Notes: a model not told the origin generated them from the sequence alone. Shown: positions 449 to 45,324, counted from the first letter of the stretch. The stretch is DNA of 64,000 nucleotides from Candidatus Hydrogenedentota bacterium (GCA_045863335.1 BTVY01000023.1:15755-79754); one strand, 5' to 3'. A program made the numbers and translations.

Positions 449-1738
449 TCAAAGGATCTGCGCGTAGTCCGCTTCAATCCGCTGCAGATTCAAGCGGTTG
501 AGGAAACTCGAATAGCACATCCAACTGACCAATGCGTTCAGATCGGAGAAGACCGGCGGCAGATACTTGGGCGCCGCGACCAACCCCTCGTCCACGAGAC
601 CGGCAAGCGTCCGGATGTCCTCCAGCGTGGCCTTACCGCAAAACAGGAGTGGGATGCGCTCCGGAATACCCCGCGTCACGGCTAGGCGCAGGTAGTTGTA
701 AACCAGCACGAAACCTTTGCTGTAGCAGATGTCCTTGGTGAACGGCGCACCGTCGGGGGTGCTTCCGCGGAAAACGCGGACCGTGTTGGTATAGCTCTCG
801 ATATCGGAGAAGCTCTGGGCGCGGTAAAACTCGAAAACCTCGACGAAGTTCGCCCCGGACTCCGCCATATGGACCGCCCGAACCCGGTTCGTCAACCGCC
901 GCAGACGTGCCGGATGGGATGCAAAGGCCAGGATTTCCGCGATGATCGCCAAGCCTTCCTGGGTTACCGTTGAGGAGGGCGGCCCCTTGCTCAGGAACGT
1001 GCAAACTGGCTGGTTGAGGCCGTTTAGCGTGGTCCCCACGTGTACCCAGCCTTCGTGAATCTCCAGCAGCCGCAGGTCCCGCTGGCTGAACCGGGCCTCT
1101 TTGCGAATCTTGATGTAGTCGGACCCGGCGGCGGCGTCGGCCACGATGCCGTCGCTCAGGCGCACCCGGACGCGTCGGTCCGCGTCGTGGAAGTAATCGC
1201 GCATCCGCTGCTGAAGAATGGCTACCGCGTCCTCCCCGCTAATGGTGCGATCCTCCTGTTGGGAGAGCGCACTCCGGTCGATGTTTTCCAGGGCTTCGGT
1301 CAACATCGTGGCGAGATCGAAGAGCGTGGGATCGCCCGCATGAAACACGTCTCCCGCGCTGCCGTAGAGCTTCTGGGACAACTCCGAAAACTCGGGCGTG
1401 CCCCGGCATTCCAGCATGCGGACGACCATGCGGTACTCACGGCACATGCGTTGCATCAAGACGCCAACGGGATTGAACTGGCCCAACTGCCGCTGGATGT
1501 CCCGTTCGATTTCGTGGAGTTCCTGCTTCTTGTCCTCGGGATCGAAGGGGAGCGGGCGTTGGGCGTAGTACGCGGCGTCGACGGCGGGCAGTTCCCGGCA
1601 GTCCTTTTCAAAGAACGACACGAGCACCGCCGGATCCCACTTGATCGCGTCGAGCACGCGAATGGGGCGCTGCGCCTCCACCACCCGATCCGAAAGCAGC
1701 CGAACCGTCTGCCGGTAATTCTCTTCTGTCGTATCCAT
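449..1738 (-). CDS. DUF1704 family protein (QEGLA-motif, flavohemoglobin expression-modulating-like)
   Basis: 488-aa ORF contains the TQEGLAIIAEILAFASHP (QEGLA) motif. Start trimmed to internal ATG (MDTTEENYRQ). Confidence 0.5.
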   Translation of the reverse strand: MDTTEENYRQTVRLLSDRVVEAQRPIRVLDAIKWDPAVLVSFFEKDCRELPAVDAAYYAQRPLPFDPEDKKQELHEIERDIQRQLGQFNPVGVLMQRMCREYRMVVRMLECRGTPEFSELSQKLYGSAGDVFHAGDPTLFDLATMLTEALENIDRSALSQQEDRTISGEDAVAILQQRMRDYFHDADRRVRVRLSDGIVADAAAGSDYIKIRKEARFSQRDLRLLEIHEGWVHVGTTLNGLNQPVCTFLSKGPPSSTVTQEGLAIIAEILAFASHPARLRRLTNRVRAVHMAESGANFVEVFEFYRAQSFSDIESYTNTVRVFRGSTPDGAPFTKDICYSKGFVLVYNYLRLAVTRGIPERIPLLFCGKATLEDIRTLAGLVDEGLVAAPKYLPPVFSDLNALVSWMCYSSFLNRLNLQRIEADYAQIL

Positions 1739-1846
1739 ACACCCGCCGAATACCAAGACCCGAAACTGCCGAATACTACCACGTTCTGCCTTATCCCGCG
1801 AATGTGCCACGTGCAGTCTCGAAGGAAGAATTGGTCCAGGATGTGA

Positions 1847-1889
1847 TGCAGGCTTCCAGCCTGCGACAGAGGCAGGCTGGAAGCCTGCA
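1847..1889. repeat. Perfect 18-bp inverted repeat (tGCAGGCTTCCAGCCTGC-gacagag-GCAGGCTGGAAGCCTGCa); each arm is itself palindromic
   Basis: Read directly. Lies in the divergent region between the DUF1704 gene start (1738, minus) and the queC start (2090, plus). No U-tract on either side. Confidence 0.6.
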
Positions 1890-2089
1890 CCACAACCACT
1901 GCTCAGTCGTGCCAACGAGGAGTTCGCAACTGTTGCCGGAGGCGCGGGAATCCATCCACCGGAAACTCGTGCCGCTGCGAACAGGAAGTTGAAAACCTCC
2001 GATCAAAAACGGCAACGTGGACACTAAGCGCGGGTTCGCCCGGACCGCGCAGCTTAACGATCGGTACTCCACCACAAGGCTTTAGTTCT

Positions 2090-24673: not shown

Positions 24674-27600
24674 ATGAATGTGCCGACAGACTCTTTACCG
24701 CAAGGTAGACGCGCGCGCTGGAGACGCACGCTATTCGCGACGTTGCTTATTGCGCTCACGGTGATCACACTGTTTGTCATCGGTCTTCCTCAGCGTTATG
24801 CACTTGAGTATGGGTTGCGCAGCGCGCTGGGAACCAACGTGCGCGTCACGGGGTTGTCTATCGCTCCTTCCGTCCGGATTCGGGAACTGGTCGTCACGGG
24901 TGGCGCCGACACGCCTCCTGTCGTGATCCGCGGGATCAACCTTGACTATGCGCTGAACGTCGATTCCATCGTTACCATTTCCACGGTCTATGTTGAATCA
25001 ATCGCACTCGACTTGCGCCAAAACGAGGACGGCGCCACCAACTACGCTTTTGCACAGCGGCTTCTGCAGGGCGATTTGGAATCCAAACCCAGCGACGAAC
25101 CGCCAATGGACATAGCGCCTTATCTGCCGGACTCGGTCGTGGTCGGCAACCTGTCCATCTTGTTGGAATCGCCACAGGGCAACCTCTCCCTTGACGGACT
25201 CCGGATGGAGGCCGATATGGAATCGGTCCTGGCCATGAATGCCCGATTGCTTGGAGAGAACGTGCATGGCTTCGTCGCCGGTGCCGGTTTGGAGGAAAAG
25301 CAGCCGGTCAACGGCTCGATCGACCTCCAGTTCATGCGCAATATGGCCAGCATGGGATTCACTGCGTCCGTCGCTCTCGACGGCATCGCGACACTCGACG
25401 GCACGCTGCACACGATTGCCGCCGTGGGTACGACGGCCGCCCAATTGCGCATCGAGGAGGGCCGATTCTTGGACGACCGCTTCGCGGCCCTGTTACCTGG
25501 AGGGCTGCGGTTCGAGTCGCTCGATGTGTCGGGGACCGAGGTGACGATGTCCTCGCCCCCGGGCATTCCCTGGGACGTAAACGCGAACATTCACGTCGAT
25601 GGGAAGGGGATTCGCTATGGCGTCGCGGATCATGAATGGTACGAGGGCGACTTGCAGGTACGCGGGAATTACGACGGCGAACGCGGCGACTTCGAGGCGG
25701 TACTGAACAATGGTCAGCGGCTTTCCGTGCTGGTCAGCGGCGAGGTGGAAGACATCCACGTCGCCGCGACCCTCATCGATTGGGATCGCGCGGATCTCGC
25801 GGATGCGTTGCCCAAAGACTTCCGGCCCTTGCTTGACGAACTGCCGCACCTCAGCCAGATCGGTGCGTCCGCAGAAGTGCGAACGCAGTGGCCCGCCTAT
25901 ACCGTGAATGCTTCCGTCGACCCGCTCTTTACGCCCGAGGCTGGAGAAGGCGAACGATTTGCCCTGCGCATTGCGGGTGAGGGCAATACGAATGCGGCGC
26001 ACGAGGACCTGTTTCATGGAAAATTGAACGCCACGCTCGGCGAGGGCGAGTTGAACGTCATCATCGATGCGGATTCCGCGAAGCGTTACAACGGCGACTT
26101 CAAGGTTGCCTACATTGACATGGCGCGATGGTTGACGCCGATCCAACAACGCGTGCCCATCGCACCGCCGCCAGGCACGCTGAACGGATCGCTCCGTATC
26201 CGGCACGAGGCCGAGTTTGCAATCGAGGGCGAACTCTCCCTTGATGCGGATGAACCGGGACCGGACGTGTCATTGACGTTCACCGCCGCGTCGGAGACTC
26301 CGGAATCCATCATTCCAATGACCGGAAAAGGGACCGTACGGTTCCCCACGCTCGAACCTGAAGGGTCCGCGGACATTAACTTCCGAATGACCGACAAGGA
26401 TCTGTCCGTCTCGTCAGTTCTTTCCAACGTCAATCTCGCTTCCGCAGTATCACTGGTCAATCGCGACCTCATGCCGGAAGGAATGGCAGCAACGCTGACG
26501 GGCAGCGCCAATGTCACGCGCGATTCCGAACAGGTTTCCATCGCGTTGAACGTGGACGCCGCGCCCGCAACGATCGCCGGGCTGACCGTACCGGCCGAAC
26601 AACCATTGCACATCGAAGGTACGTTGCGCGGTCCGGCGGCGTTGAGCGAATTGCGCGCGGAGACGCTGGCATTACGATTGACCGACGATGCAAGGGTAGA
26701 TATCGGCAACCTCGCGATTGCGTTCTCGCCATTCAAAGTTCGTGGCCACCTCACGGGACGCGTTGATTTCGACTACGTAGGCCCCATCATTGGACTGCCC
26801 ACCGTGGTCGGTGCGCTTACGGTTGACGCGCCGTTTACGCTGATCGACGGAGTATTGGAGGCGCCGCTACGCCTCGAAGGTGACGGATTCGGATATGGCA
26901 AATGGGCCGGACCTTACGGGACCCCCGTTGTACTGACGGGAGACGCACGCTACGCGCTGGATACGCAGTCCCTCGGCATCGGCAACGCAGAAGTGCTCTG
27001 GGGAGAAAGCACGCGCATCACGAGCACGCAGGCCGCCGCTGTGTTGAGCCCCTTCTCGCTTTCGGCGCCTTTCGAGGTTGCCACGGATCTTGCTCCCTTG
27101 GTTGACCTCCGCTTTCTTGATGCCGCAGACGGCACGGCGACGGCGAATGGCACGCTCGGCATTGGCAGCGGCCAGCAAACACGTGTGGAATACGATCTTG
27201 CCGCGCGGTCCCTGACCTTGGCCGGAGCCGTGGCCGCGTTCGGCGGATTGTCGTCCTCCGGCAACCTGGTGTACGGCGAGTCGCTGGACGGACGGGTCCG
27301 ATTCGCGGCCGCCGAAGCCGCGGCCGCCGGCGCGGTCCTGACCGATCCCCGCGGCATTTGCATGATCGAGAACGGCGTTGCGCAAGCCACCCATGTCGAA
27401 GCTTCGCTCTATGGGGGGCGAACCGCTTTTGATGCGACGGTGAATATCCTGGATATGGACGAGGGGGGCCGCCTGGACGCCCATCTCGAAGGGGTCGATT
27501 TGGATCGGTTTACCAAAGAATACGAACCGCCGTCTGTCGTGCTCACGGGGATTGCCAACGGAGACGTGTCGCTGGTCTGGGCTGCGAACGGGCTCGCTGA

Positions 27601-28048
27601 CTTGCGCGTCGATCTGGCCTCCGACGAGAACTTTTCCATGAACCGGGAGATCATCGAGAATCTGTTGCTCCAGTCCGTCACCGCGGACATGACCGGCCTC
27701 AAACGGCTCAACAAACGCATTCGCGAGGACACCATCGGCGAAGGATCGCAACGCCCCTTCGAACGGGCAGTGGTCTCGTTGTCGCTCGAAGGCGACACTT
27801 ACGAGGAGCAACGACTGATTGGACCGGTGTCCCTGGAAAGCGAAATGCTCGACCTGTCCATCGACCTGGGCGTCGACCTGCTGGCTATTGCCAGCGCCAT
27901 GGAGCTCCAGCAACAGGCGCAGCTTGGCGAAGGTGATACGATATCCGCAGAACCTGTACAATGGGAGCTTCCTGGAGAGTCTTCCAATCCCGATTCGAAT
28001 AATTCGGACGATCCGTCGTCCAGTACGTCAAAGGAGGAGGAATCATGA
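24674..28048 (+). CDS. AsmA-like (YdbH/TamB-type) giant envelope protein
   Basis: 1124 aa, N-terminal TM anchor (LFATLLIALTVITLFVIGL), long repetitive beta-rich body, acidic C-terminal tail. Confidence 0.45.
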   Translation: MNVPTDSLPQGRRARWRRTLFATLLIALTVITLFVIGLPQRYALEYGLRSALGTNVRVTGLSIAPSVRIRELVVTGGADTPPVVIRGINLDYALNVDSIVTISTVYVESIALDLRQNEDGATNYAFAQRLLQGDLESKPSDEPPMDIAPYLPDSVVVGNLSILLESPQGNLSLDGLRMEADMESVLAMNARLLGENVHGFVAGAGLEEKQPVNGSIDLQFMRNMASMGFTASVALDGIATLDGTLHTIAAVGTTAAQLRIEEGRFLDDRFAALLPGGLRFESLDVSGTEVTMSSPPGIPWDVNANIHVDGKGIRYGVADHEWYEGDLQVRGNYDGERGDFEAVLNNGQRLSVLVSGEVEDIHVAATLIDWDRADLADALPKDFRPLLDELPHLSQIGASAEVRTQWPAYTVNASVDPLFTPEAGEGERFALRIAGEGNTNAAHEDLFHGKLNATLGEGELNVIIDADSAKRYNGDFKVAYIDMARWLTPIQQRVPIAPPPGTLNGSLRIRHEAEFAIEGELSLDADEPGPDVSLTFTAASETPESIIPMTGKGTVRFPTLEPEGSADINFRMTDKDLSVSSVLSNVNLASAVSLVNRDLMPEGMAATLTGSANVTRDSEQVSIALNVDAAPATIAGLTVPAEQPLHIEGTLRGPAALSELRAETLALRLTDDARVDIGNLAIAFSPFKVRGHLTGRVDFDYVGPIIGLPTVVGALTVDAPFTLIDGVLEAPLRLEGDGFGYGKWAGPYGTPVVLTGDARYALDTQSLGIGNAEVLWGESTRITSTQAAAVLSPFSLSAPFEVATDLAPLVDLRFLDAADGTATANGTLGIGSGQQTRVEYDLAARSLTLAGAVAAFGGLSSSGNLVYGESLDGRVRFAAAEAAAAGAVLTDPRGICMIENGVAQATHVEASLYGGRTAFDATVNILDMDEGGRLDAHLEGVDLDRFTKEYEPPSVVLTGIANGDVSLVWAANGLADLRVDLASDENFSMNREIIENLLLQSVTADMTGLKRLNKRIREDTIGEGSQRPFERAVVSLSLEGDTYEEQRLIGPVSLESEMLDLSIDLGVDLLAIASAMELQQQAQLGEGDTISAEPVQWELPGESSNPDSNNSDDPSSSTSKEEES

Positions 28049-28816: not shown

Positions 28817-31054
28817 TGGCGGCCGGCAACATTCAGTCTTCGCCGAAAGATCGTCCGTGTTTGTCCGTGTTCGTCCGTGTGGCCACGGCCAAAACAACAA
28901 GGCCACCGCAAAAATACCCAGCAACCCGAGTCCCAACCCAGACCACCGGACACCCACCTGAAAACTTTCGGGGTTAAAACGGAAGCGAATCTCCCGCTCG
29001 CCCGTTGGCACCACTACCCCCATGAAATCGCCGTTGACACGCAGAATGGGAAGTACTGAGTTGTCCACCGCGCTTGTAGCGTGCCACCCTTTGTGAAAGC
29101 TTTCGCTAAGAATTAGCAGTTGGGGTGTTTCCGCGCGCACGTGTACATGCACGTCCCCCGGTCGCGAAGTCACTAAGCTCACCTCGCCGTCGCCGGGGCG
29201 TATGCCAATCGCTTCCTCGACAAGCGCTGTCGTCGCGACGTCAATGGTCTGGATATCTCGCGCCGGAGAATCGCTCACGATTGCCGAGCCCGCGAGATAA
29301 ACCCGCGAAACCGGATCGCTCACCGGAATCCATCGACCCGGTTCGCGCGTCACATGGTCGTTCATGTAATACCGCGCACCCGGTTTCTCTTTGTAGGCAA
29401 CCCCGGCCGCGCGCAATGCAGCGTCGCCGGAGTAATCGAGATTGCGCCGCGGCAGCACACCGGCAAGACCGCTGGCCATATCGTACTCGGCCAGAGCCCA
29501 ACCGTTGCTCTCCGGCTTGCGGCCGGAGTACACGCGATACGGTCCAATGTCGCCAGGCCCAGGAAAGCGCTGAGCGAAACGCTCGATCGTGGTGGGCGTG
29601 CTCCACCAATGGAGAAAGTGCAACCCGTAAAGCGACTGGTCCAAGGCGGCCAGCACGAACAAAAGCGGTAGTGCAAACCGAAGCCTGTACGCGGCCCCGG
29701 CAACAAGGACCACACAGGCCGTGGTCGCCAAGGGACCCCACCAAAGCAAGGGTGGCGTGGACAAGTCGCCATTGAGCGCTATATCGAGGACACCCCCGTA
29801 CGCGAGCACGGCGAAGGCCCAGCTTGCGAGCGCAATCGCGACCGCCACCGCGACCGCACTGCGCTTCAGACTCCGGCTGCATGCCCTCTGAAGTTGATCA
29901 AAACCGATTCCCGCGATCGCCGCCGTGGCAAAAAAGAAGAGAACCAGGTACCGGCAAGGTCCTTTGAACAACGAAATGAGCGGAATCCAGTTCACGAGGC
30001 GGTGGAACCCGGTGTAAGGACCAAACGCTAGGAGGAGAGCAAGTACGGAACCCGCGAGTAAAAACACGACAAGTCTTCGTTGTCCGCCGAGGCGCGGCAT
30101 GCGCACCAATGCCCAGACCAGCAGGAACGCACACACGGCGCCGCCGTACATGGTGAACTCCTGCAGGTTACCGTAGAAGCTTCCGTACTCGAAGAGGAAT
30201 GGATTGAGCAGTTGCAGCAGGTTCAGCGGATGGAGCGAGAGGTAATTGCGAAGCGCATCCGCGTCGGCGATGCGATCGGAATTCAGAAGGAAGTCATAGC
30301 TCGGAAGCCATTGGGCCGCGCCGATCAGGAATCCGATACCCTTCGCGAGAAACAAGAGGATGGGGGTCCCCCAACGCCGGTGCCGGAACGTCAGTGCCAG
30401 CGTATAGGCCGCCTCGGCGAGTCCGATGATCCAGATGAACTGCGGATAACCGAGGAGCAGCTCCGATGCCGTCAGCAATGCCACTGCGATGACAGACCAT
30501 GCGCGCTGGCGCGGAGTCCTGCCAGTAAACGCGCCATCGATCGCGAGGAGAAGCCACGGCAGATGAACTGTCATCTCGACAAGATGCATATGCGCCGCGC
30601 GCAGAATGCCGAATCCGGAGAAGGCAAATAAGAAGGCGGCAAACAGCGCCGCCGCACGGCTCATGGACCAGCGGCGAAAAAGCAGGTAGCAACCCGACAA
30701 GATGGCTGGATAGCAGAGCAGCAGTTCGAGATTAAAGGCTACCTGTAGGGGCAGGAACCGGTAGAGCAGGTAGTGCAACGGATGCAGAAATCCACCTTGG
30801 CCTTCGCCGTGGATGTAGTGCCCGCACAACACCTGCGGCTCCCACAGGAAGGAGTCCCCGTTACGCAGGCAGTCCTGGTAGAAGGCGCGCGCGGGTAGAT
30901 GAAAGCCACCGAGGTCAATGTGGGTGTAAACCTTGCCAGTCAGCAAGGGGATAGACAGCGCGAACAGGACCGACGCACAACAGGCCAGGCCGACGCGGAG
31001 GAGGATCGTATCGCGGGGGTCGGTTTTGCGGCTTGGTTGTGATGTGGTTGGCAC
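28793..31054 (-). CDS. Large polytopic membrane protein (YfhO/glycosyltransferase-like fold suspected)
   Basis: 753 aa with >12 hydrophobic segments and a soluble C-terminal domain. Confidence 0.4.
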   Translation of the reverse strand: MPTTSQPSRKTDPRDTILLRVGLACCASVLFALSIPLLTGKVYTHIDLGGFHLPARAFYQDCLRNGDSFLWEPQVLCGHYIHGEGQGGFLHPLHYLLYRFLPLQVAFNLELLLCYPAILSGCYLLFRRWSMSRAAALFAAFLFAFSGFGILRAAHMHLVEMTVHLPWLLLAIDGAFTGRTPRQRAWSVIAVALLTASELLLGYPQFIWIIGLAEAAYTLALTFRHRRWGTPILLFLAKGIGFLIGAAQWLPSYDFLLNSDRIADADALRNYLSLHPLNLLQLLNPFLFEYGSFYGNLQEFTMYGGAVCAFLLVWALVRMPRLGGQRRLVVFLLAGSVLALLLAFGPYTGFHRLVNWIPLISLFKGPCRYLVLFFFATAAIAGIGFDQLQRACSRSLKRSAVAVAVAIALASWAFAVLAYGGVLDIALNGDLSTPPLLWWGPLATTACVVLVAGAAYRLRFALPLLFVLAALDQSLYGLHFLHWWSTPTTIERFAQRFPGPGDIGPYRVYSGRKPESNGWALAEYDMASGLAGVLPRRNLDYSGDAALRAAGVAYKEKPGARYYMNDHVTREPGRWIPVSDPVSRVYLAGSAIVSDSPARDIQTIDVATTALVEEAIGIRPGDGEVSLVTSRPGDVHVHVRAETPQLLILSESFHKGWHATSAVDNSVLPILRVNGDFMGVVVPTGEREIRFRFNPESFQVGVRWSGLGLGLLGIFAVALLFWPWPHGRTRTNTDDLSAKTECCRPPETQTPGR

Positions 31055-31236
31055 GGGTATCTTCCGGTTAATGGCTGGAAGATTGCCACGGTGAGGCTTC
31101 GGAATCCAGTGGAGGGAAGAGATATGGACCTGCGGTCCATGTGGGACATGGGCTGGAAGCCCATGGCACCTCGAATCACGACCTGGAAGGCCGTGCCACC
31201 TTCACGTGCCGCCTCTGGCGTCACGCGAAGTATCGG

Positions 31237-32301
31237 TCAGACCTTGCCGGACTCGATGGCGGCGACGGCTTTGCGGCCGAGCATGTGGACCATGACGATC
31301 AGCATGGCAAAGCGTTCGTCTGTGGTGAGCCCCTGTTTGTAGCGGTAGTAGATTTGTTGGACGATGACCGAAAGTTTAAGCAGGGCGAGAACGTAGTAGA
31401 AGAGGATACTCGAGATGTCGCGGCCGGTGCGGGCGGCGTAGGCCTCCGCAAGTTCCATGCGGGTCATGGCGCCGGGTTCGGTGGTGAGAAAGCACTGGAC
31501 CACGTGCATCTCCTCGTCGTCGGCCTGGATCCAATAGCCGAGGGAAGTGCCAAGGTCCGCCAGGGGATCGCCGATGGTCGCCATCTCCCAATCGAGCACG
31601 CCGAGAATCTTCGTGAGGTCATCCGGATCGAGCACGATGTTGTCGAACTTGTAATCGTTATGCACGAGCACGGCCCCGGTATCAGCCGGAATGCGTTCGT
31701 GAAGCCACGCGATGACACGATCGATCTCGGGAATGTCGTCGGTCTGCGAACCAGCGTAGCGCTTTGACCAACCTTTCACCTGACGTTCCACGTAGTTTTC
31801 GCCTTTGTACAGATCGGCAAGCCCGATGGCGCGATAATCCAGCGCGTGCAAATCGGCAAGATTCTCGATGAACGACTGGCAACACTGGCGCGTGAGGCCG
31901 GCTGTGTTTTCCAGCCCCTCCGGTTTTCTTGATCGAAGTATCACCCCCTTGATGCGTTCCATGACGTAGAACTGCGCGCCGATAATCGATTCGTCCTCGC
32001 AGAACGCCAAGGGGCTCGGCGCGGACGGATACACGGGATGTAATTTCGATAACACCACAAACTCGCGCCCCATATCATGGGCGGATTTCACCTTGCTCCC
32101 AAAGGGCGGACGCCGCAAAACGAGTTCTCGTTCGCCCGCGCGCAAAAGGTACGTCAGATTGGAATGGCCGCTCGGAAACTGCTCGACCACGATGGGTCCC
32201 TCCATGCCGGGCACAGCATCCGCCAGGTAGCGCGCGAGCGCCTCCGTGTCGAGTTCCTCTCCCTTGCGAACCGCGGCCGTGCCGTCAAGCGGACCCATCA
32301 T
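31237..32301 (-). CDS. Phosphotransferase (APH/choline-kinase-like) family kinase
   Basis: Brenner motif HNDYKFDNIVLD and DWEMATIGDPLADLG. The start ATG overlaps the ACAD stop (ATGA). Confidence 0.7.
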   Translation of the reverse strand: MMGPLDGTAAVRKGEELDTEALARYLADAVPGMEGPIVVEQFPSGHSNLTYLLRAGERELVLRRPPFGSKVKSAHDMGREFVVLSKLHPVYPSAPSPLAFCEDESIIGAQFYVMERIKGVILRSRKPEGLENTAGLTRQCCQSFIENLADLHALDYRAIGLADLYKGENYVERQVKGWSKRYAGSQTDDIPEIDRVIAWLHERIPADTGAVLVHNDYKFDNIVLDPDDLTKILGVLDWEMATIGDPLADLGTSLGYWIQADDEEMHVVQCFLTTEPGAMTRMELAEAYAARTGRDISSILFYYVLALLKLSVIVQQIYYRYKQGLTTDERFAMLIVMVHMLGRKAVAAIESGKV

Positions 32302-33515
32302 TGGTTCGCCCCCGACTTGATCGTGATGCCGTGACGTTTCAGGATGCGTTTCGCGACCGACTGCTTGTGAACTTCGTCCGGGCCATCGTAAATGCGCGCG
32401 GGCCGTTCGTGCCGGTAGAAGTGGGAGAGCACGGAGTCGTCCGTGACGCCGTAGCCGCCAAGACATTGCACCGCGCGATCGACGACGCGCTGCATGGTGT
32501 TCGCCACGGTGAATTTGATGAGCGAAATCTCTTCCCGCGCTTCCTTCGCGCCGTGCTGCTCGATGCACCAGGCCGCGTGCAACACCATGAGCCGCGCCGC
32601 ATTGATCTCTGCGCGGCTGTCGGCGATCCACTGTTGGACCATCTGCCGCGTGCCGAGCGGTACGCCCGGAGCAACTTCGCGTTTGGCCGCGTGGGCGCAC
32701 ATGATTTCAAAACTGCGTTCGCAGATCCCGATCCAGCGCATGCAGTGGTGGATGCGCCCTGGACCAAGCCGTTCCTGTGCGATGGCGAACCCCATGCCCT
32801 CGCCGCCGAGCAGGTTGGACTGCGGCACCCGGCAATCGTCAAAGCGAACCTCGCCGTGGCTGGCCCAATCCTCGCCTGCATCGCCCATGACGCCGATGTT
32901 GCGCACGTGCTTGTAGCCCGGGTTGTCGAGGGGCACGAGAATCATGCTCGCGCGGAAGTGAGGTTCCTGGTTCGGATCGGTCACCGCCATGACCACGGTG
33001 AACGAAGCGCCCTCGGCCGATGACGTGTACCACTTGTGACCGTTGATCACGTAGTCATCGCCGTCTTTCACCGCCGTCGTGCTCATCCATACCGGATTGG
33101 ATCCCGCATGCTCCGGCTCGGTCATGGCGAAACAACTGCGAATGTCCCCGCGCAACAACGGTTCGAGAAATGTTTTCTGCTGTTCCGGCGTGCCGAACTG
33201 AATGAGGATCTCCATGTTGCCCGCGTCGGGCGCCTGGCAATTGAAGCAATAGTGACCGAGCGGCGTGCGGCCCAGCTCTGCGCTCAGAAGACCATGCTCG
33301 ACCAGACTGAGCCCGAGCCCGCCGTGCTCTTTGGAAATCTGCGGGAGCCACCAGCCGCGCTTCTTGACGTCTTCGCGGATGCGCGCCAGTTCCGGCAACA
33401 GCGCCTTGAATCCCCGCGCGTGGTCTCTGCGCTCGAAGGGGTACAGCTCTTTCTCAACGAACTCCCGGACGGCGCCGAGAAAATCCTGCGTCTGTTGCGG
33501 TATCGAGAAATCCAT
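32298..33515 (-). CDS. Acyl-CoA dehydrogenase family protein (ACAD10/11-like)
   Basis: 405 aa with typical ACAD N-, middle- and C-domain pattern (AMTEPEHAGSNP, GHKWYTSSA, GGYGVTDD). Confidence 0.85.
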   Translation of the reverse strand: MDFSIPQQTQDFLGAVREFVEKELYPFERRDHARGFKALLPELARIREDVKKRGWWLPQISKEHGGLGLSLVEHGLLSAELGRTPLGHYCFNCQAPDAGNMEILIQFGTPEQQKTFLEPLLRGDIRSCFAMTEPEHAGSNPVWMSTTAVKDGDDYVINGHKWYTSSAEGASFTVVMAVTDPNQEPHFRASMILVPLDNPGYKHVRNIGVMGDAGEDWASHGEVRFDDCRVPQSNLLGGEGMGFAIAQERLGPGRIHHCMRWIGICERSFEIMCAHAAKREVAPGVPLGTRQMVQQWIADSRAEINAARLMVLHAAWCIEQHGAKEAREEISLIKFTVANTMQRVVDRAVQCLGGYGVTDDSVLSHFYRHERPARIYDGPDEVHKQSVAKRILKRHGITIKSGANQ

Positions 33516-33545
33516 GACCGGCTTCCTTTCTGCGGCAGGCCCCGC

Positions 33546-34265
33546 CTACCGGTACGTCCACAGCATGGGATCGTTGAGATGGGACATGCCATTAAATCCA
33601 TTTAAGGTGAAGCGCCCGTTTGTGAACAGGAACTCCGTGGTCGAAGCGTTCCGCACCTGCCACACCAGTTCGAGCGTCGCCTCAGGAGTCGTGTTAAGGG
33701 CCATACCGAGTGCGACCGCCGTCGGGCCGCCGGAAGTAAACGCGGCGATGCGCTCGCCTTTCTTCGCGCGGTCGAGGATGGACCGGTACGCCGTTGTCAC
33801 CCGATCCCGAAAGTCAGCGAAAGTCTCTATCGCGTCGTCCCGATACTGTTCGTTGGCCCAGTGCAACATGAGCTTCTCAAAGGCCTTTTGGAAGTTCTTC
33901 TCCTTCTCGCGCTTGTCCTGGACTTCCATAAACTTCTGCATGAGCAACAGGACTTGCTCATCCTCCGCACAAAGTTGGGGCATAAAACGCTTCGCCAATT
34001 TCTCGACGGCCATCTCCGCGATGGCCTCTTCGATTTGAATCTCAGGAAACGTCTCGCCGGCCTTCGCATAGCATTCCGCGACGATCTCCGCGGAACGGCG
34101 TTGCCGCGCCAGGGGACCGGAGTAGACGCGATCGAAGGCGATCCCATGGCGGACCCAGAACTCCCCAAGGTGGCGGCACTGTTCCTCCCCCAACGGGCTC
34201 AGTTTGTCGTAGTCTTCCTCGTGAAACGAAGCTTGCCCGTGGCGGACAAGAATGAGAACACCCAT
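33546..34265 (-). CDS. Histidine phosphatase (phosphoglycerate-mutase-like) family protein
   Basis: LVRHGQASF (RHG motif). Start set at MGVLILVRHGQ. Confidence 0.6.
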   Translation of the reverse strand: MGVLILVRHGQASFHEEDYDKLSPLGEEQCRHLGEFWVRHGIAFDRVYSGPLARQRRSAEIVAECYAKAGETFPEIQIEEAIAEMAVEKLAKRFMPQLCAEDEQVLLLMQKFMEVQDKREKEKNFQKAFEKLMLHWANEQYRDDAIETFADFRDRVTTAYRSILDRAKKGERIAAFTSGGPTAVALGMALNTTPEATLELVWQVRNASTTEFLFTNGRFTLNGFNGMSHLNDPMLWTYR

Positions 34266-34305
34266 TTTGTGCTGAGACTCCAATACGTGCGGTAGACCTT
34301 GATTG

Positions 34306-34588
34306 CAAATTCGAAATCCGAAGCACGAAATCCGAAAACAAATTCTAATAACCGAAATTCAAAAAGACCCGTTCTCGATCAAACCGAAACAACCAATCCT
34401 CGCGAAGACCTTGAACCATACCGAAACGCGAATCCTTCGTGGCTTGGACGCCGTCGCCCAAGACGTATTGTCGGAATAGCCTGAGCGCGGCTCCCAAAAC
34501 CTTGGGCGAGGACGCCCAAGCACGGGATATACTTTCGCGCTTTGAACATTAATCTGTTTCGGATTTCGTGCTTCGGATTTCGAGTTTA
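34306..34588. mobile_element. MITE/REP-like element copy A: ~38-bp terminal inverted repeats flanking a ~205-bp non-coding core
   Basis: TIR-L caaattcgaaatccgaagcacgaaatccgaaaacaaatt (34306-34344) versus the reverse complement of TIR-R aatctgtttcggatttcgtgcttcggatttcgagttta (34551-34588): ~36/39 identical. Each TIR holds two CGAAATCCGAA units. The core contains two related hairpins (cttggacgccgtcgcccaag, cttgggcgaggacgcccaag). Confidence 0.45.
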
Positions 34589-34599
34589 ATCCCCTTACC

Positions 34600-34932
34600 T
34601 TACGGAATCGACGGAGGCGGGACAAGGGGCTCTCCCGATTCCAGCGAACGGACCACCGCGTCCAGAATAGGCTCAAGGTCGGCCGCGGTCACATGCGAGT
34701 ACCAGACGTTGTCCGGAAACACCATGATGTTGGGGCCGTCCTCGCACTTGTCCATGCAGCCCGACTGACTGACTCGAATCCTTGAGCGAAGCTGCCGCGC
34801 CTTGACCATGGCTTTGAGCGTGTCACGCAGTTCTCCGCCGCCCGCGCTCATGCAGCAGACCCGCTCGCCCTCCGCGCGTTCGTTGGTGCAGACAAAGATG
34901 ATCTTCTCAAAGGGTAGCGAATTGACGTCCAT
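34600..34932 (-). CDS. (2Fe-2S) thioredoxin-like ferredoxin domain protein
   Basis: FVCTNERAEGERVCCMSAGG ... SGCMDKCEDGPNIMVFPDNVWY Cys pattern. Start trimmed to MDVNSL with a GAAGG RBS. Confidence 0.45.
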   Translation of the reverse strand: MDVNSLPFEKIIFVCTNERAEGERVCCMSAGGGELRDTLKAMVKARQLRSRIRVSQSGCMDKCEDGPNIMVFPDNVWYSHVTAADLEPILDAVVRSLESGEPLVPPPSIP

Positions 34933-37004: not shown

Positions 37005-38152
37005 ATCCTACCGTGACGATCTCGTCTGTGGCCCATGGCGGCTATGGCATCGCCCGCATCGACGGGCAGGTCTGTTTCATCCCCTACGCATTGCCCGGCG
37101 ATGAAGTGGTGGTGCAGGTTGAACGACGGTCGAAGGGTGTTCTGTGGGGCGCCATCGATCGCATCGTCGCGCCGTCGCCGGATCGGATCGATCCGGGCTG
37201 CGGCGTCTACGGGCGCTGCGGCGCATGCACGTGGTTGCATTTCGCCTATCCGGCCCAGGCGGAATGGAAACGGCGGATCGTGCGCGACTGCTTCGAGCGT
37301 ATCGCCAAACTTCAGGTAGAGGTTACTTGGGCCGACGACCCAGACCGGCGCCTGCACTACCGCACGCGCGCCGAGTTTCACGGCGATGGAAATGGTTTTG
37401 GCTTCTACGCAGGCGGCACGCACGACGTCGTCGATGTGGTCACTTGCCCGCTGTGTCATCCACGGCTGAATACGGTGTTGTCCAGGTTGCGCGAACTGGG
37501 ACTGCGTGGATCGGTCGAAGTGTCCGTGAACCCGGAGAGCGACGACGTTCTTGTATGGTCGACAAAGCAGAGCGCGCCGCTAGCCTCGGCGTATCCGAAC
37601 GCACAGTGGATCGGTTCGGATGGTCCGCGCGCGCAGTTTCGGTTCGACGGCGTACCCGTGGTGAATGGCGCGTTTTCGCAGTCCAGCCTGTTATTGAATC
37701 GTGTGCTGCTGCGCGTCGTCCAGGAGGCGGTGGGCGATTCGGAACGAATTCTCGATCTCTATTGCGGTAGCGGCAACCTCTCGCTCGCCTTCGCGCGGGA
37801 TCGGTCGGTGGTCGGCATCGATCATAATCGCGCATCTATTGAAGCTGCTCAAGCCGCCGGACAAGGCGAGTACCGCACCGGAGACGAAACCGCTTTCGGT
37901 GCCGCGCTCGGCGAGGGGCAGTGGGACGCCATCCTGCTCGATCCGCCCCGTACCGGCGCGAAGCCTGTTGCCGGAGTGCTCGCTGAGTGTCGCGCGAAGC
38001 GGGTCGTCTACGTGTCCTGCGATCCGGCCACGTTGGCGCGTGACGCCAAGGTCCTGGCCGCGGGCGGCTGGAAGCCGAACCGGGTCACCGCGGTTGACCT
38101 CTTTCCCAACACCTGCCACATCGAAGCCGTGTGCGAATTCCTGCGCGCTTGA
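37001..38152 (+). CDS. rlmD: 23S rRNA (uracil-C5)-methyltransferase RlmD/RumA family
   Basis: TRAM-like N-terminus, 4-Cys cluster (CGVYGRCGAC...C), SAM motif LDLYCGSGNLSL, DPPRTG. GTGA overlap with the antiporter stop. Confidence 0.7.
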   Translation: MNPTVTISSVAHGGYGIARIDGQVCFIPYALPGDEVVVQVERRSKGVLWGAIDRIVAPSPDRIDPGCGVYGRCGACTWLHFAYPAQAEWKRRIVRDCFERIAKLQVEVTWADDPDRRLHYRTRAEFHGDGNGFGFYAGGTHDVVDVVTCPLCHPRLNTVLSRLRELGLRGSVEVSVNPESDDVLVWSTKQSAPLASAYPNAQWIGSDGPRAQFRFDGVPVVNGAFSQSSLLLNRVLLRVVQEAVGDSERILDLYCGSGNLSLAFARDRSVVGIDHNRASIEAAQAAGQGEYRTGDETAFGAALGEGQWDAILLDPPRTGAKPVAGVLAECRAKRVVYVSCDPATLARDAKVLAAGGWKPNRVTAVDLFPNTCHIEAVCEFLRA

Positions 38153-38229
38153 CGCGTTGCGTTTCGCACGCCTGCCGGGCCTGGTGTATAATCCGCCATC
38201 GGTGTGTCCCCACGTATTGGAGAAGATTT

Positions 38230-40035
38230 ATGACAACGCGTCTCTATTCCTTCGTTCCGGCGCTTCTTATACTGGCGTGTTTCCCGGCGTTCGCGGAAGA
38301 AGAGCCCGCCCCCGACCTGGCGGACCTTCCGTGGTCGTTGCGGGACCACTACACCATCACCACCGCCGACCAGCAGATGTACATCACTTACGGCGGCGAC
38401 AACGGGGAGTGGAGTCTCGATATCAAGGGGATCGGTACGGTACTCACCAAGGTGGCGGCAACGATTACCCTGGCGGACGGCTCGGTTATCGATCTGCGCG
38501 ACCTTGGTGTGGGCGATACTACCCGCTACAAGGAAACGGCGGAACTGGGACCCGGCATGAAGTACACGGTCAAAATGTCCGCTCCGAACGGACTGGGCAT
38601 CGTGCATTCCTTGACCTACCACGAGACCCATCCGTTCTACGTGGTACGCATGGAACTGACCAACAACGGCTCCGAACCTCTCGAAGTCGCCAGGATTAGC
38701 CCGGTCGTGATTGGCCCGGGCGGTTTCGGTAACCTGAGCCTGGAGACGACCGAGAGTCCGCGCCGCTTCGATGTCATCGGCGCCTCGCCCGTGTACACGA
38801 AAGTGGGCGACCCCCTCTTTTCGCTTTTCCACGATCCCGTCAAGAACGTCACCTTGGCCGTGGGCGGTCTTCCCGTAGGCCGCGCGAAGACGGGCGTCCA
38901 CCTGGAAAAGTTCGAAGGCCGGTACCAGGGGCACATCACGACCACCTTCGACCCGGCGGTGACGCTGGCGCCCGGCGCTTCGCTCGCATCGGACCCCGTG
39001 TGGATCGCCTTTACCCTGCCCAAGCCCGCCGACGTGGACATGTTCTACGCCTGGGCTCATGCGAACATGCCCGACGCCAAGTCGGAGGGCGTGCCGGAAT
39101 GCTGGGTCACCGTGCCGGACGGCGAGTCCTTGCCGGAACTGATCCAGGCTGTGAACTTCTGGAAAGGCGCCGACGTTGCCCACGCGCTCGTTCCCGTCAC
39201 CTGGGAAGGCCGGCCGGGATCGCTGGAAGGCGCTCAGCCTGATTATCCGAAAGACATGGCCAATGCCGCCGCGCAACTCCGTCAGGCGGGAGCCACACCG
39301 GGCATCACGCTTGACCCGTTGGCGGTAGTGGACGGGAAAGACGAGTTCACGGCGGTGTCTGCCGACGGTCAACGCTGGCTCAATCCGGCCAACGAACAAG
39401 GCAAACAGTTCGGCGTCGAGCGGCTCCGTGCCGTCGCGCGCTGGGGCTTCGGATTCTACGTTGTCGAGCCTTCCCTGATACCGGATGAAGTTCTGAAACA
39501 TTTCAATCTCACACGTACCCAGGCCAACGACCTCGCCTACGACATGATGGTCGAAGTCGCGGCCGGCGCCCCCGTGCTCGGGGCTTCGGAGGCCACCTTG
39601 GGCGCATCGATCGACGAGTGGCTCCTCGCCGCCGCGGCCACCAGCCGCATGGAGGAGTACTCCGTCGTCGTCGGGCCGGTGCGGTTTGATGCGAACGCTG
39701 CCGGAGACCTGCCGGACGATGCCGTTACCGCCATGGCGTTTTTTGGCGGGCCCATCGAGTTGGTGGGAAATCCGTCGTCGGGGCTTCTAAAGCAAATCGG
39801 CAAGGTGTTTCCCAAACCGTACATCTGGCCGCGCGCCATCGATTCCGGTTCTCCCGCGCCGAAGCTGTGGCAGGTTCACGTACAGCAAAGCCAGGGAGCA
39901 GGCGAACGCCTGGCGATCGTGTCGTTCCCCGGCGCGCGGGCCCATACGCCCGCGGATTTGGTTTCGCCTTCGGGTGAAGGACTTCAGACCATGGAATCCA
40001 GTGCGGCCGAGTTCCTGGATGCCCTCGGCCGTTAG
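38230..40035 (+). CDS. Secreted hypothetical protein (~600 aa)
   Basis: Signal peptide MTTRLYSFVPALLILACFPAFA; GGAGAAG RBS. No confident domain. Confidence 0.4.
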   Translation: MTTRLYSFVPALLILACFPAFAEEEPAPDLADLPWSLRDHYTITTADQQMYITYGGDNGEWSLDIKGIGTVLTKVAATITLADGSVIDLRDLGVGDTTRYKETAELGPGMKYTVKMSAPNGLGIVHSLTYHETHPFYVVRMELTNNGSEPLEVARISPVVIGPGGFGNLSLETTESPRRFDVIGASPVYTKVGDPLFSLFHDPVKNVTLAVGGLPVGRAKTGVHLEKFEGRYQGHITTTFDPAVTLAPGASLASDPVWIAFTLPKPADVDMFYAWAHANMPDAKSEGVPECWVTVPDGESLPELIQAVNFWKGADVAHALVPVTWEGRPGSLEGAQPDYPKDMANAAAQLRQAGATPGITLDPLAVVDGKDEFTAVSADGQRWLNPANEQGKQFGVERLRAVARWGFGFYVVEPSLIPDEVLKHFNLTRTQANDLAYDMMVEVAAGAPVLGASEATLGASIDEWLLAAAATSRMEEYSVVVGPVRFDANAAGDLPDDAVTAMAFFGGPIELVGNPSSGLLKQIGKVFPKPYIWPRAIDSGSPAPKLWQVHVQQSQGAGERLAIVSFPGARAHTPADLVSPSGEGLQTMESSAAEFLDALGR

Positions 40036-42800: not shown

Positions 42801-43074
42801 ATTCGAAATCCGAATCTCGAAATCCGAAACAAATCCGAAGGACCAAAACCCTAAACGTGACCGTTCCGGTCGGCTGGCGGGAGACGGTCACCGTGGCAGT
42901 GCGCGAGTCGAAGGCTGAAGCGGAGTTCGCCGCTGGCACCAACGAAGGTTATGAATACTGACCGAACCAGAAACTCCTGCGATAACCGATAAACGCTGTT
43001 GAGGCCCGTTTCGGTCATTCGAATTTATAACATTTGAATTTGTTTCGGATTTCGAGATTCGGATCTCGAATTTG
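42799..43074. mobile_element. MITE/REP-like element copy B: ~35-bp terminal inverted repeats flanking a ~205-bp non-coding core
   Basis: TIR-L aaattcgaaatccgaatctcgaaatccgaaacaaa (42799-42833) versus the reverse complement of TIR-R tttgtttcggatttcgagattcggatctcgaatttg (43039-43074): near-perfect. The element exactly fills the gap between the convergent ispE stop (42800) and esterase stop (43080). Confidence 0.45.
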
Positions 43075-45218: not shown

Positions 45219-45324
45219 CGAAACTGGGGGGCCGAATCGTTGGAAGCGTGCTCGTTGCACATCCGATCGGTACAATGGTGCGGACCTTTTGAAACGAGTA
45301 CCACGACTTGCGGGGGTTCCATCC

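Follow-up and report, generated by a model that had tools for sequence, protein, structure and literature searches.

In mammalian ACAD10 and ACAD11, a kinase domain is followed by a domain with the acyl-CoA dehydrogenase (ACAD) fold in a single chain (PMC12440821, PMC11342911; PDB:8v3u, 8v3v, 2wbi). Human ACAD10 also has a phosphatase-type HAD domain, which is not homologous to the histidine phosphatases, and ACAD11 has no phosphatase-type component. In Pseudomonas putida KT2440, the kinase and the ACAD-like eliminase are encoded separately in the lva operon (lvaRABCDEFG), and the pair acts on 4-hydroxyacyl-CoA via 4-phosphoacyl-CoA (PMC6692424, PMC12440821, PMC11342911). A small gene, lvaB, lies next to the kinase gene, and an SDR (LvaD), an acyl-CoA ligase (LvaE), and a regulator (LvaR) are clustered with it. 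A motif (R...HCMR) and a catalytic aspartate are specific to, and essential in, the ACAD-type enzymes of both systems, and LvaC has the same aspartate and active-site motif as ACAD10 and ACAD11 (PMC12440821). Furthermore, split orthologues from Burkholderia pseudomallei can stand in for both domains of ACAD10 in vitro (PMC11342911).

The only described system that we found with a histidine-phosphatase-family gene inside a kinase/ACAD cluster is the lva cluster of P. citronellolis LA18T (PMC6692424). There, the phosphatase gene lies between the homologues of lvaA and lvaC and replaces lvaB. (The order is lvaA ... phosphatase - lvaC - lvaD, with a dedicated ligase and a regulator nearby.) The cluster is up-regulated on levulinate, and the authors suggested that the phosphatase may strip phosphate from 4-phosphovaleryl-CoA (PMC6692424).

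At the locus from Candidatus Hydrogenedentota, three co-directional genes fill the span 31237-34265, which runs exactly from the stop of the kinase gene to the start of the phosphatase gene:

34265..33546, minus strand: histidine phosphatase (His_Phos_1) gene, first of the operon (ATG start, 239 aa)
33515..32298, minus strand: ACAD gene, second of the operon (405 aa)
32301..31237, minus strand: APH-type kinase gene, third of the operon (354 aa)

The stop of the phosphatase gene is separated from the start of the ACAD gene by 30 nt, with a Shine-Dalgarno-like GAAAGGAAG within the gap. The ATG of the kinase gene (32301-32299) shares bases with the TGA of the ACAD gene (32300-32298), which gives an ATGA overlap (a spacing of -4 nt). 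The original prediction had described the shared direction and the overlap correctly; it did not mention that all three genes are on the minus strand. The gene structure and overlaps indicate that the three genes probably form one transcription and translation unit.

All three proteins match Pfam families far beyond chance (E = 8.8e-22 to His_Phos_1 for the phosphatase; 2e-15, 1e-18, and 1.6e-37 to Acyl-CoA_dh_N, _M, and _1 for the ACAD; 2.9e-49 to APH for the kinase). We then compared the ACAD to proteins of known structure. Using phmmer against the PDB, the highest scores were for 4hr3 (293 bits) and mouse ACAD11 (286 bits; 42% identity to its ACAD domain), while the best canonical enzyme was human SCAD (PDB:2vig) at 156 bits. 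By bit score, the ACAD is nearly twice as close to 4hr3 and ACAD11 as to any canonical ACAD, and it does not fall among the short- or medium-chain dehydrogenases. It also has the active site that is described for phosphate elimination: R249, H257, R260, and D377 correspond to R626, H634, R637, and D753 of mouse ACAD11 (PDB:8v3u). The upstream arginine and the two HCMR residues (R249, H257, and R260) fall inside RLGPGRIHHCMR, and D377 sits in ARIYDGPDEVH, where an aspartate takes the place of the canonical glutamate. The preceding residue differs: it is tyrosine here (RIYDGPDEVH) but alanine in ACAD10/11 (LRLADGPDEVH), which marks a separate bacterial subclade. We predict that the ACAD relies on FAD to eliminate phosphate from 4-phosphoacyl-CoA.

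Among solved structures, the best matches of the kinase are an ACAD10-type kinase from Caldalkalibacillus thermarum (PDB:9o56; 331 bits, 46% identity) and a protein from Cupriavidus (PDB:3dxp; 178 bits), followed by the kinase domain of mouse ACAD11 (173 bits, 36% identity). The aminoglycoside kinases APH(2'') and APH(3') score only 23-28 bits, and the kinase does not cluster with the aminoglycoside or choline kinases. Using published motif definitions (PMC12440821, PMC13596139), we found the catalytic set of the ACAD10/ACAD11/LvaA-type kinases: H214-N-D216-Y-K218 (HxDxK), N221, and D237-W-E, along with an arginine in beta3 (LRRPP) and R79-E80 in alphaC, all of which align to 9o56 and ACAD11. 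(The HxDxK, N, and DWE motifs and the beta3-Arg/alphaC-Glu pair are shared with 3dxp as well.) The arginines of ACAD11 that contact CoA, R86 and R176, also have equivalents. R173 corresponds to R176, and R79 is the counterpart of R86, as assigned by its position beside the alphaC glutamate (with a numbering offset of about 2). The kinase gene is coupled to the gene for an HCMR-type ACAD by the ATGA overlap, and this pair recurs in relatives. We predict that the kinase is a 4-hydroxyacyl-CoA kinase of the ACAD10/ACAD11/LvaA type.

Compared to ACAD10 and ACAD11, the locus encodes the same two catalytic modules, with the catalytic aspartates of both, the R...HCMR phosphate-binding helix, and the CoA-contact arginines in common. 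The modules are separate polypeptides here, with overlapping genes and with the ACAD before the kinase, and the phosphatase-type component is a PGAM-like histidine phosphatase instead of the HAD domain of ACAD10. As in P. putida, the kinase and the eliminase are split, but the histidine phosphatase is a difference from the lva operon of KT2440, and the kinase gene has no small neighbor like lvaB: the gaps of 30 nt and -4 nt leave no room for one. More broadly, we found no equivalents of lvaB, lvaD (SDR), lvaE (CoA ligase), or lvaR in the window (the whole 64-kb stretch of DNA that we analyzed). A Pfam scan of roughly 33 ORFs in the window (all but about a dozen shorter ones) found no genes for a CoA ligase, an SDR, or beta-oxidation. 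Since we found none of lvaB, lvaD, and lvaE there, the locus resembles ACAD10/11 more than a complete Lva operon. Overall, the similarity to an ACAD10/11- or LvaA/LvaC-like pair that was originally predicted is supported by the bit scores and the signature residues, and we consider it highly probable that the kinase and the eliminase are a split bacterial ACAD10/ACAD11 (LvaA/LvaC-type) module.

We then examined the phosphatase, which has the same length as nearly all of its homologues. It belongs to a distinct PGAM-like subfamily with the motif VRHGQASF...TSGG, which at 50% identity splits into at least 1,300 clusters and is found in at least 8 bacterial phyla. (The homologues that we examined from Burkholderia, Acinetobacter, and Pseudomonadales are all within this subfamily.) A search of the PDB with the single sequence gave no match at E <= 0.01. 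A structure predicted by AF2 (pLDDT 88.7, pTM 0.86) matched PDB entries with a Foldseek probability of 1.00 and TM scores of 0.63-0.75, and the top matches were phosphoserine phosphatases (PspA), PhoE, and PGAM5. Together, the model and the matches identify the PGAM alpha/beta fold. A helical cap is inserted at about residues 85-165, and within it F125, Q126, and W136 are invariant in the family.

Most of the catalytic residues of branch 1 of His_Phos_1 are present. R8 and the nucleophile H9 (in R8-H9-G10, the RHG motif), the second arginine R54, and the acidic proton donor E84 are invariant in the family, both in an alignment of 26 sequences (A1) and across 80 homologues from genomes. But the second catalytic histidine (xHG) is missing. 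In a profile alignment to PDB:9mmh (GHGG) and PDB:5zkk (SHGA), its position is occupied by Ser178 (FTSGGP), and all 80 of the genome homologues have serine there. Compared to the canonical members of branch 1 (dPGM, PhoE, PspA, PGAM5, CobC, and SixA), which have the same fold, RHG motif, second arginine, and glutamate general acid, the phosphatase is only 15-20% identical. Its subfamily also has a larger cap insert and, unlike the canonical members, appears to be genomically dedicated to the 4-hydroxyacyl-CoA module. Because the second histidine is replaced by serine throughout the subfamily, the phosphatase may have weak or altered activity, or none. On the other hand, the invariance of His9, Arg8, Arg54, and Glu84, along with the confirmed fold, argues for retained catalysis, and our preferred reading is that the phosphatase is catalytically active.

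We surveyed 80 loci in genomes of at least 8 phyla, which were picked by similarity to the phosphatase alone, and considered neighbors within 6 kb. The kinase is present at 35 of these loci, an HCMR-type ACAD at 35, both at 23, and at least one of them at 47; these neighbors nearly always run in the same direction as the phosphatase gene. The HCMR motif is identical in all 35 of the HCMR-type ACADs, and every ACAD homologue adjoining the phosphatase carries RLGPGRIHHCMR and (Y/A)DG(P/A)DEVH. Other recurrent neighbors at the 80 loci encode SDRs (31), acyl-CoA ligases (13), Zn-ADH-like proteins (12), and FadB-like ECH/3HCDH proteins (7), which are the complement of an Lva-like pathway. About 40% of the phosphatase-family loci have no kinase or ACAD nearby, and these mainly encode proteins of about 224 aa, of the Variovorax/Roseateles type.

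In the reciprocal direction, we considered close homologues of the kinase at 41 metagenome loci where the sequence extends 2.5 kb or more upstream. The phosphatase is present at 25 of them, the ACAD at 22, and both at 15. Some kinase-ACAD pairs lack the phosphatase, so the phosphatase is not obligatory, and we found no conserved small ORF (LvaB-like) at the kinase loci without the phosphatase. The order phosphatase-ACAD-kinase is repeated at seven loci (L001, L087, L116, L120, L122, L141, and L155). In Deinococcus radiodurans, the order is SDR-MaoC-PaaI-hyp-ACAD-?-APH-HisPhos. LysR genes are also present at related loci, besides those for the SDR and the ligase.

The kinase-ACAD pair is thus kept across at least 8 phyla, and the phosphatase is very probably linked in function to the kinase/ACAD pathway. 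Neither outcome that the original prediction had named as a refutation (an ACAD and a kinase clustering with the canonical families, or a pair without co-conservation) was observed. Judging from its gene neighborhoods, the putative phosphatase is a partner of the 4-hydroxy-acid system that is conserved in a wide range of bacteria. The original prediction had placed this protein outside the described systems, which was too strong, given the P. citronellolis LA18T cluster (PMC6692424) and the link at 47 of 80 genome loci. The two phosphatases are likened by family name and gene position, and they differ in size (218 aa in P. citronellolis and 239 aa here). Also, the phosphatase gene is the first of a minimal three-gene operon here, in a phylum that is distant from P. 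citronellolis.

Our best explanation of the locus as a whole, which we think is likely to be correct, is a compact operon that brings 4-hydroxy acids into beta-oxidation, with the phosphatase as a dedicated partner. The kinase would transfer phosphate from ATP to the 4-hydroxyl group of a 4-hydroxyacyl-CoA. The ACAD-fold enzyme would then make transient use of its bound FAD, with Asp377 and the R249/H257/R260 phosphate-binding helix: the substrate would be oxidized, phosphate eliminated, and the product re-reduced to yield a 2-enoyl-CoA, with zero net redox change. Activation with CoA and onward beta-oxidation would rely on genes elsewhere in the genome. We infer the kinase, eliminase, and beta-oxidation steps by homology to proteins that have been characterized experimentally.

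As for the phosphatase, it might hydrolyze the phospho-intermediate, either 4-phosphoacyl-CoA or a 4-phosphoalkanoate released from it by a thioesterase. This could be a safety valve or a repair step, which would prevent the trapping of CoA and phosphate if the eliminase is limiting or if the wrong isomers are phosphorylated. We suggest this specific role tentatively and rate it somewhat below an even chance. A counterpoint is that if the kinase and the phosphatase both acted on one intermediate, they would cycle it futilely unless their kinetics were tuned. Furthermore, hydrolysis of the phospho-intermediate is not proved by the analogy to ACAD10, whose HAD domain showed negligible activity on 4-P-OH-C6-CoA (PMC11342911).

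In another reading, the phosphatase-fold protein does not hydrolyze the intermediate but assists or regulates the kinase as one of its subunits. Its functional counterpart would then be LvaB, a 12-kDa protein that binds LvaA in P. putida and that LvaA requires for activity. A further parallel would be the degenerate HAD domain of ACAD10, which lacks a complete DxD motif and has no measurable phosphatase activity, yet restrains the kinase and lowers its output (PMC11342911). The invariable serine in place of the second histidine fits this idea, as does the phosphatase gene of P. citronellolis, which fills the missing lvaB slot between lvaA and lvaC (PMC6692424). Across loci, the phosphatase gene most often directly adjoins the kinase gene (in the arrangements PK, SPK, ASPK, and KP). 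However, many loci pair the phosphatase with an ACAD and have no kinase within 10 kb (such as L028 and L043; L058 is likewise free of the kinase, over 10 kb on the downstream side and 4.5 kb on the upstream side). Phosphatase-kinase fusions are absent from the best 150 family representatives, and the B. pseudomallei and C. thermarum kinases show activity by themselves in vitro (PMC11342911, PMC13596139). Also, the nucleophilic histidine, both arginines, and the general-acid glutamate are invariant over 80 diverse genomes, which is atypical for a pseudoenzyme. We consider such a subunit role unlikely. A broader proposal is that the RHGQASF...TSGG subfamily makes up an ancient third component that is dedicated to the pathway, and that it is the bacterial, non-homologous counterpart of both the ACAD10 HAD domain and LvaB. 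It would be either a 4-phosphoacyl-CoA/4-phosphoalkanoate phosphatase, with its pocket re-modeled by the change from histidine to serine, or a phosphatase-derived regulator of the kinase. We give this proposal nearly even chances. If it is true, then a phosphatase fold has been recruited repeatedly, and control of the phospho-intermediate would be an intrinsic requirement of this chemistry.

A different substrate is suggested by a 2026 preprint, which reports that ACAD10-type kinases, including the C. thermarum protein, have a second activity as 1-O-alkylglycerol kinases (PMC13596139). Since this protein is the closest solved homologue of our kinase, and its reported activity in vitro is 1-O-alkylglycerol phosphorylation (of chimyl alcohol, stimulated by acetyl-CoA; PMC13596139), we kept a role in glycerolipid or ether-lipid metabolism as a rival. 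The kinase would act on 1-O-alkyl- or monoacyl-glycerols, and the phosphatase would act on lipid phosphates, in place of the ACAD10 HAD domain. The set of phosphatase, kinase, and ACAD does mirror the HAD-kinase-ACAD of ACAD10. Carriers include Planctomycetes, Acidobacteria, Desulfobacterales, and myxobacteria, groups with ether-lipid producers. But the recurrent neighbors are exclusively of the acyl-CoA type (HCMR-ACAD, SDR, acyl-CoA ligase, FadB, MaoC, PaaI, and ECH), and glycerolipid or AGPS-like genes were not found among the conserved neighbor clusters. The kinase keeps the CoA-contact arginines of ACAD11, and the tightly coupled ACAD retains a phosphate-eliminating active site, for which an ether-lipid scheme has no use. 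How the two activities relate is left open in the preprint (PMC13596139). We view a lipid role as quite improbable. If the genes were adjacent by mere coincidence, they would encode a plain beta-oxidation ACAD, an APH kinase of the antibiotic or choline type, and a housekeeping phosphatase of the PGAM family. In favor of this, the Pfam names are generic, and none of the three proteins reaches the cut-off of an NCBIfam equivalog. Against this stand the large gaps in bit score to canonical ACADs and APHs, the signature residues of the ACAD and the kinase, the translational coupling, and the linkage of the three genes across phyla in several gene orders. The bit scores, the signature residues, and both surveys effectively refute a coincidental adjacency, which we consider extremely improbable.

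The original prediction had also mentioned a repeat element A and, just beyond it, a gene for a thioredoxin-like 2Fe-2S ferredoxin. The ORF beyond the repeat ends at 34600, with a likely start near 34932. Its only Pfam match, to DUF1636, is below the threshold (21.9 bits versus a cut-off of 31.6). Its cysteine pattern is C..NER...CC...SGC.D.C, and a thioredoxin-like 2Fe-2S ferredoxin is plausible. Repeat element A is real: it is a 31-nt inverted repeat whose arms (34307-34337 and 34557-34587) are 97% complementary. The same termini recur in a second element, at 42804-43068.

The operon comprises three genes on the minus strand, listed here in the order of transcription:

34265..33546, minus strand: histidine phosphatase (PHOS), 239 amino acids; Pfam His_Phos_1, E = 8.8e-22
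33515..32298, minus strand: acyl-CoA-dehydrogenase-fold enzyme (ACAD), 405 amino acids; three Pfam acyl-CoA dehydrogenase domains, E down to 1.6e-37
32301..31237, minus strand: APH-type kinase (KIN), 354 amino acids; Pfam APH, E = 2.9e-49

The phosphatase and ACAD genes are 30 nt apart, and this gap includes GAAAGGAAG, which resembles a ribosome-binding site. The ATG of the kinase gene overlaps the TGA of the ACAD gene (ATGA). Gene structure and Pfam matches thus bear out the original prediction of three co-directional genes at 31237-34265 with an ATGA overlap between ACAD and kinase, coordinates included, and at the sequence level both the operon structure and the three family memberships are established. 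No curated NCBIfam equivalog reached its cut-off for any of the three proteins. In a scan of 30900-34750 for promoters and terminators, nothing that fits the operon exceeded the shuffled expectation.

Among all PDB sequences, the best matches to the ACAD are from M. abscessus (PDB:4hr3; 293 bits) and mouse ACAD11 (286 bits, 42% identity), versus 156 bits for the best canonical ACAD, human SCAD. Rashan et al. (PMC12440821) described the residues that mark the clade of ACAD10, ACAD11, and LvaC (the ACAD-like enzyme of the Pseudomonas putida levulinate system, Lva). These are a catalytic aspartate instead of glutamate (D753), an HCMR motif (H634 and R637), and an upstream arginine (R626); they adjoin the FAD and are required for handling the 4-phosphate (PMC12440821). 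As aligned to mouse ACAD11 (PDB:8v3u), all four are conserved in the window's ACAD (D377, H257, R260, and R249), as expected for a phosphate-eliminating active site. The bit scores and the signature residues rule out an ordinary SCAD or MCAD. Similarly, the kinase matches the C. thermarum ACAD10-type kinase (PDB:9o56) with 331 bits (46% identity), PDB:3dxp with 178 bits, and the kinase domain of mouse ACAD11 with 173 bits (36% identity), versus at most 28 bits for aminoglycoside, thiamine, and other APH models. Its catalytic set is entire (H214-N-D216-Y-K218, N221, D237-W-E, and the beta3 arginine and alphaC glutamate), and R79 and R173 correspond to the two CoA-contacting arginines of the ACAD11 model. 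Again, bit scores and signature residues rule out an aminoglycoside or choline kinase. By sequence, then, the ACAD belongs with ACAD10, ACAD11, and LvaC, and the kinase with those of the ACAD10/ACAD11/LvaA type, as had been predicted for both.

The kinase-ACAD pair is a new example of an already known type of system, and it occurs here in a phylum new to that system, as a minimal operon of three genes. (The kinase-eliminase chemistry was recognized in 2017 for the bacterial Lva system and in 2024-25 for ACAD10/11.) The locus extends the reach of this pathway to Hydrogenedentota and many uncultured lineages. No partners like lvaD (SDR) or lvaE (CoA ligase), nor any of the other accessory genes that recur at related loci, were found among the scanned ORFs of the window, where the operon's neighbors encode a YfhO-like membrane protein, a Na+/H+ exchanger, a methyltransferase, glycosidases, and sulfatases. 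If the proteins act as their characterized homologs do (PMC12440821, PMC11342911), the kinase would phosphorylate a 4-hydroxyacyl-CoA, and the ACAD-fold enzyme, with transient use of FAD, would eliminate the phosphate to give a 2-enoyl-CoA for beta-oxidation.

We examined the co-conservation of the three genes from both sides. In a profile scan with one genome per species, no fewer than 593 genomes had a relative of the phosphatase, and we analyzed the best 80 loci. These are from Planctomycetota, Acidobacteriota, Hydrogenedentota, Desulfobacterota, Myxococcota, Nitrospirota, Chloroflexota, Spirochaetota, and Pseudomonadota. Of the 80, 35 carry the kinase gene no more than 6 kb away from the phosphatase gene, and an HCMR-type ACAD (a putative phosphate eliminase with the HCMR motif) lies within that distance in 35 as well; 23 loci contain the two together, and 47 contain one or both. 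The linked genes are almost always on the phosphatase's strand. SDR genes also recur nearby, at 31 loci, as do genes for acyl-CoA ligases (13), Zn-ADH-like reductases (12), and FadB-like hydratase/dehydrogenases (7). From the kinase's side, in 41 metagenome loci with close kinase homologs, each extending 2.5 kb or more upstream, the phosphatase is present in 25, the ACAD in 22, and both in 15. The co-conservation that the original prediction depended on is therefore present in both directions, and linkage across phyla is established. The gene order varies, as in these examples:

Gene order at related loci
L001 (another Hydrogenedentota genome): PHOS-ACAD-KIN
L005: ACAD-SDR-PHOS-KIN-SDR
L003 (Acidobacteria): PHOS-KIN adjoining MaoC, ligase, and SDR
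Burkholderia: PHOS-KIN-SDR-SDR-ACAD-LysR
Pseudomonadales MAG: SDR-KIN-PHOS-ECH
L167 (Deinococcus radiodurans, NZ_OV024759.1 73384-88094): SDR-MaoC dehydratase-PaaI thioesterase-hypothetical-ACAD-(about 1 kb without an annotated gene)-phosphotransferase-histidine phosphatase

The three genes are conserved as a unit while their order varies, a pattern that marks functional rather than accidental linkage. The PaaI thioesterase in the D. radiodurans module would fit the idea that free 4-phosphoalkanoates form.

Every HCMR-type ACAD that we found adjoining a phosphatase homolog has an identical RLGPGRIHHCMR and also has (Y/A)DG(P/A)DEVH. Across loci L007-L086, these ACADs form two subclades, which differ in the residue before the catalytic aspartate. 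The tyrosine form, RIYDG(P/A)DEVHK, includes the window's ACAD and proteins from Hydrogenedentota, Desulfobacterota, and others (57-72% identical to one another). The alanine form, LRLADGPDEVH, includes ACAD11, 4hr3, and proteins from Burkholderia (these three 42-46% identical to the window's ACAD), Planctomycetota, and Acidobacteriota. The corresponding residues of canonical ACADs are Y-E-G, so the tyrosine forms look intermediate.

The phosphatase belongs to a sharply delimited subfamily of the branch-1 histidine phosphatases, and nearly all of its members have about 239 amino acids. Searched with the family profile, 1.84 billion representatives yielded 1,319 clusters of this subfamily at E <= 1e-30; the closest named homologs are from Hydrogenedentota (59-66% identity), which points to this phylum as the probable source of the operon. 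A single-sequence search of the PDB with the phosphatase had no match at E <= 0.01, and the connection to solved structures comes solely from the family profile and a fold search. For the confident AlphaFold model (pLDDT 88.7), the fold matches are phosphoserine phosphatases, PhoE, and PGAM5, at TM scores of 0.63-0.75 and only 15-20% identity. The subfamily retains the nucleophile (R8-H9-G10), R54, and E84. In place of the superfamily's second catalytic histidine, it has a serine, within an invariant (T/S)-S-G-G motif (profile alignment to 9mmh and 5zkk), and this serine is present in all 80 genomes. We considered the invariant H229 as a stand-in, but canonical members that have the second histidine also show the C-terminal N...HL motif in profile alignments, so we rejected it. 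The helical cap is larger (approximately residues 85-165) and includes the family-invariant F125, Q126, and W136.

Among the best 150 of the 1,319 clusters, we found no fusions of the phosphatase to APH or ACAD domains. Two of these matches are long: an N-terminally extended protein and a fusion to a C-terminal FKBP-type peptidyl-prolyl isomerase domain (P0164, 478 amino acids). A shorter form of about 224 amino acids, with the same RHGQ...SSGG motifs, is found in Variovorax, Roseateles, and other Burkholderiales. At its loci (L049, L052, L056, L061, L066-L069, L074, L076, L078, L079, and L082-L084), there is no kinase or ACAD nearby; instead, PhzF-like and glyoxalase-like genes recur upstream. 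It may represent a sub-branch that serves another role.

The original prediction placed the phosphatase outside the described systems, which needs correction because two precedents have been described. Pseudomonas citronellolis LA18T has, between its homologs of lvaA and lvaC, a gene for a histidine phosphatase, in the slot that lvaB (the small partner) has in P. putida; its authors suggested dephosphorylation of 4-phosphovaleryl-CoA (PMC6692424). This was the only mention of such a gene in a kinase/ACAD context that we found in the literature. The other precedent is the phosphatase-type domain of human ACAD10, although this is a HAD domain and is not homologous to the window's histidine phosphatase. 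Its role is disputed, as either a regulator or an ether-lipid phosphatase: it was reported to curb the kinase, with negligible activity on 4-P-OH-C6-CoA (PMC11342911), and to dephosphorylate 1-O-alkyl-2-acetyl-glycero-3-phosphate (PMC13596139). We also considered whether LvaB might be a relic or analog of the phosphatase: no Pseudomonas lva operon turned up in the plasmid collection, and the 16 kinase loci without the phosphatase had no conserved small ORF. Overall, the novelty lies in how broadly and specifically the phosphatase is associated with the kinase and ACAD and in the His-to-Ser change in its active site, and this conserved, modified histidine phosphatase is an under-described component of the kinase/ACAD system.

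What might the phosphatase do? With lower confidence than for its partners, we infer that it is a safety valve or repair enzyme that would hydrolyze the phospho-intermediate or its de-esterified acid. Catalysis is favored because the nucleophile and the arginine and glutamate residues are retained. A role as a regulatory partner of the kinase seems unlikely to us, even though the second histidine is lost, the gene occupies the slot of lvaB and often adjoins the kinase gene, and the HAD domain of ACAD10 is a precedent. At L028 and L043, the phosphatase gene is followed directly by an HCMR-type ACAD of subclade A with no kinase within 10 kb on either side, which argues against a mere kinase subunit. 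L058 has the same pair with no kinase in 10 kb downstream or 4.5 kb upstream, and at L039, L041, L046, L050, L053, L055, and L060 no kinase was seen, but these loci are near contig ends. (The kinase-less loci are from Desulfobacterales, Leptospirales, Spirochaetes, and others, and their ACADs are 58-63% identical to the window's.) These pairs suggest that the phosphatase may have as close a link with the eliminase as with the kinase.

A role in ether-lipid metabolism appears more doubtful still. The closest solved homolog of the kinase, from C. thermarum (PDB:9o56), phosphorylates chimyl alcohol in vitro (PMC13596139), but the window's kinase keeps the CoA-contact residues, its gene is coupled to an ACAD that retains the phosphate-eliminating site, and the conserved neighborhood is solely of the acyl-CoA type. 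Coincidental adjacency of housekeeping genes is excluded by the bit scores of the ACAD and kinase, the ACAD's signature residues, and the cross-genome linkage in both directions.

Whatever the phosphatase does, its function is experimentally accessible. Carriers include the tractable Burkholderia, Acinetobacter baumannii, and D. radiodurans, whose module is convenient for genetics. To a specialist in ACAD10/11 or Lva, the pair will be unsurprising, and the association will be useful for considering why a phosphatase fold accompanies the kinase: hundreds of bacterial genomes link the same two enzymes to another phosphatase fold, which offers a simple system for asking why the kinase-eliminase pathway needs a phosphatase. 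Also, annotations such as "histidine phosphatase family," "acyl-CoA dehydrogenase," and "phosphotransferase family" could gain a specific pathway context.

We also noted other features of the window. Three long ORFs with good coding statistics (24674-28048, 38131-40035, and 45289-48312; 1124, 634, and 1007 amino acids) had no significant Pfam domain, only a sub-threshold DUF748 in the first. Directly upstream of the phosphatase's start codon is a MITE-like element (34307-34587) with terminal inverted repeats of 31 nt, 97% complementary and 219 nt apart (AAATTCGAAATCCGAAGCACGAAATCCGAAA). Inside it, at 34442-34521, is a palindrome with arms of 21 nt, 86% complementary and 38 nt apart (GCTTGGACGCCGTCGCCCAAG / CTTGGGCGAGGACGCCCAAGC). 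At 42804-43068, with a GHMP-kinase gene on one side and the next gene on the other, is a second element of about 265 bp, whose termini agree with those of the first for about 45 nt and whose interior is unrelated. The terminal-repeat motif has four copies in the window, versus zero expected by chance. Upstream of the operon and co-directional with it, a small ORF (34600-34932, minus strand; about 110 amino acids from MDVNSLPF...) has the cysteine pattern typical of thioredoxin-like [2Fe-2S] ferredoxins; its sole Pfam match is a sub-threshold DUF1636, and it has no counterpart beside the module in L001, the one related locus checked. Finally, a 488-amino-acid protein at 449-1915 (minus strand) matches Pfam MATCAP (E = 2.9e-137) in this bacterial genome. 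(The family is named for microtubule-associated tyrosine carboxypeptidase.)
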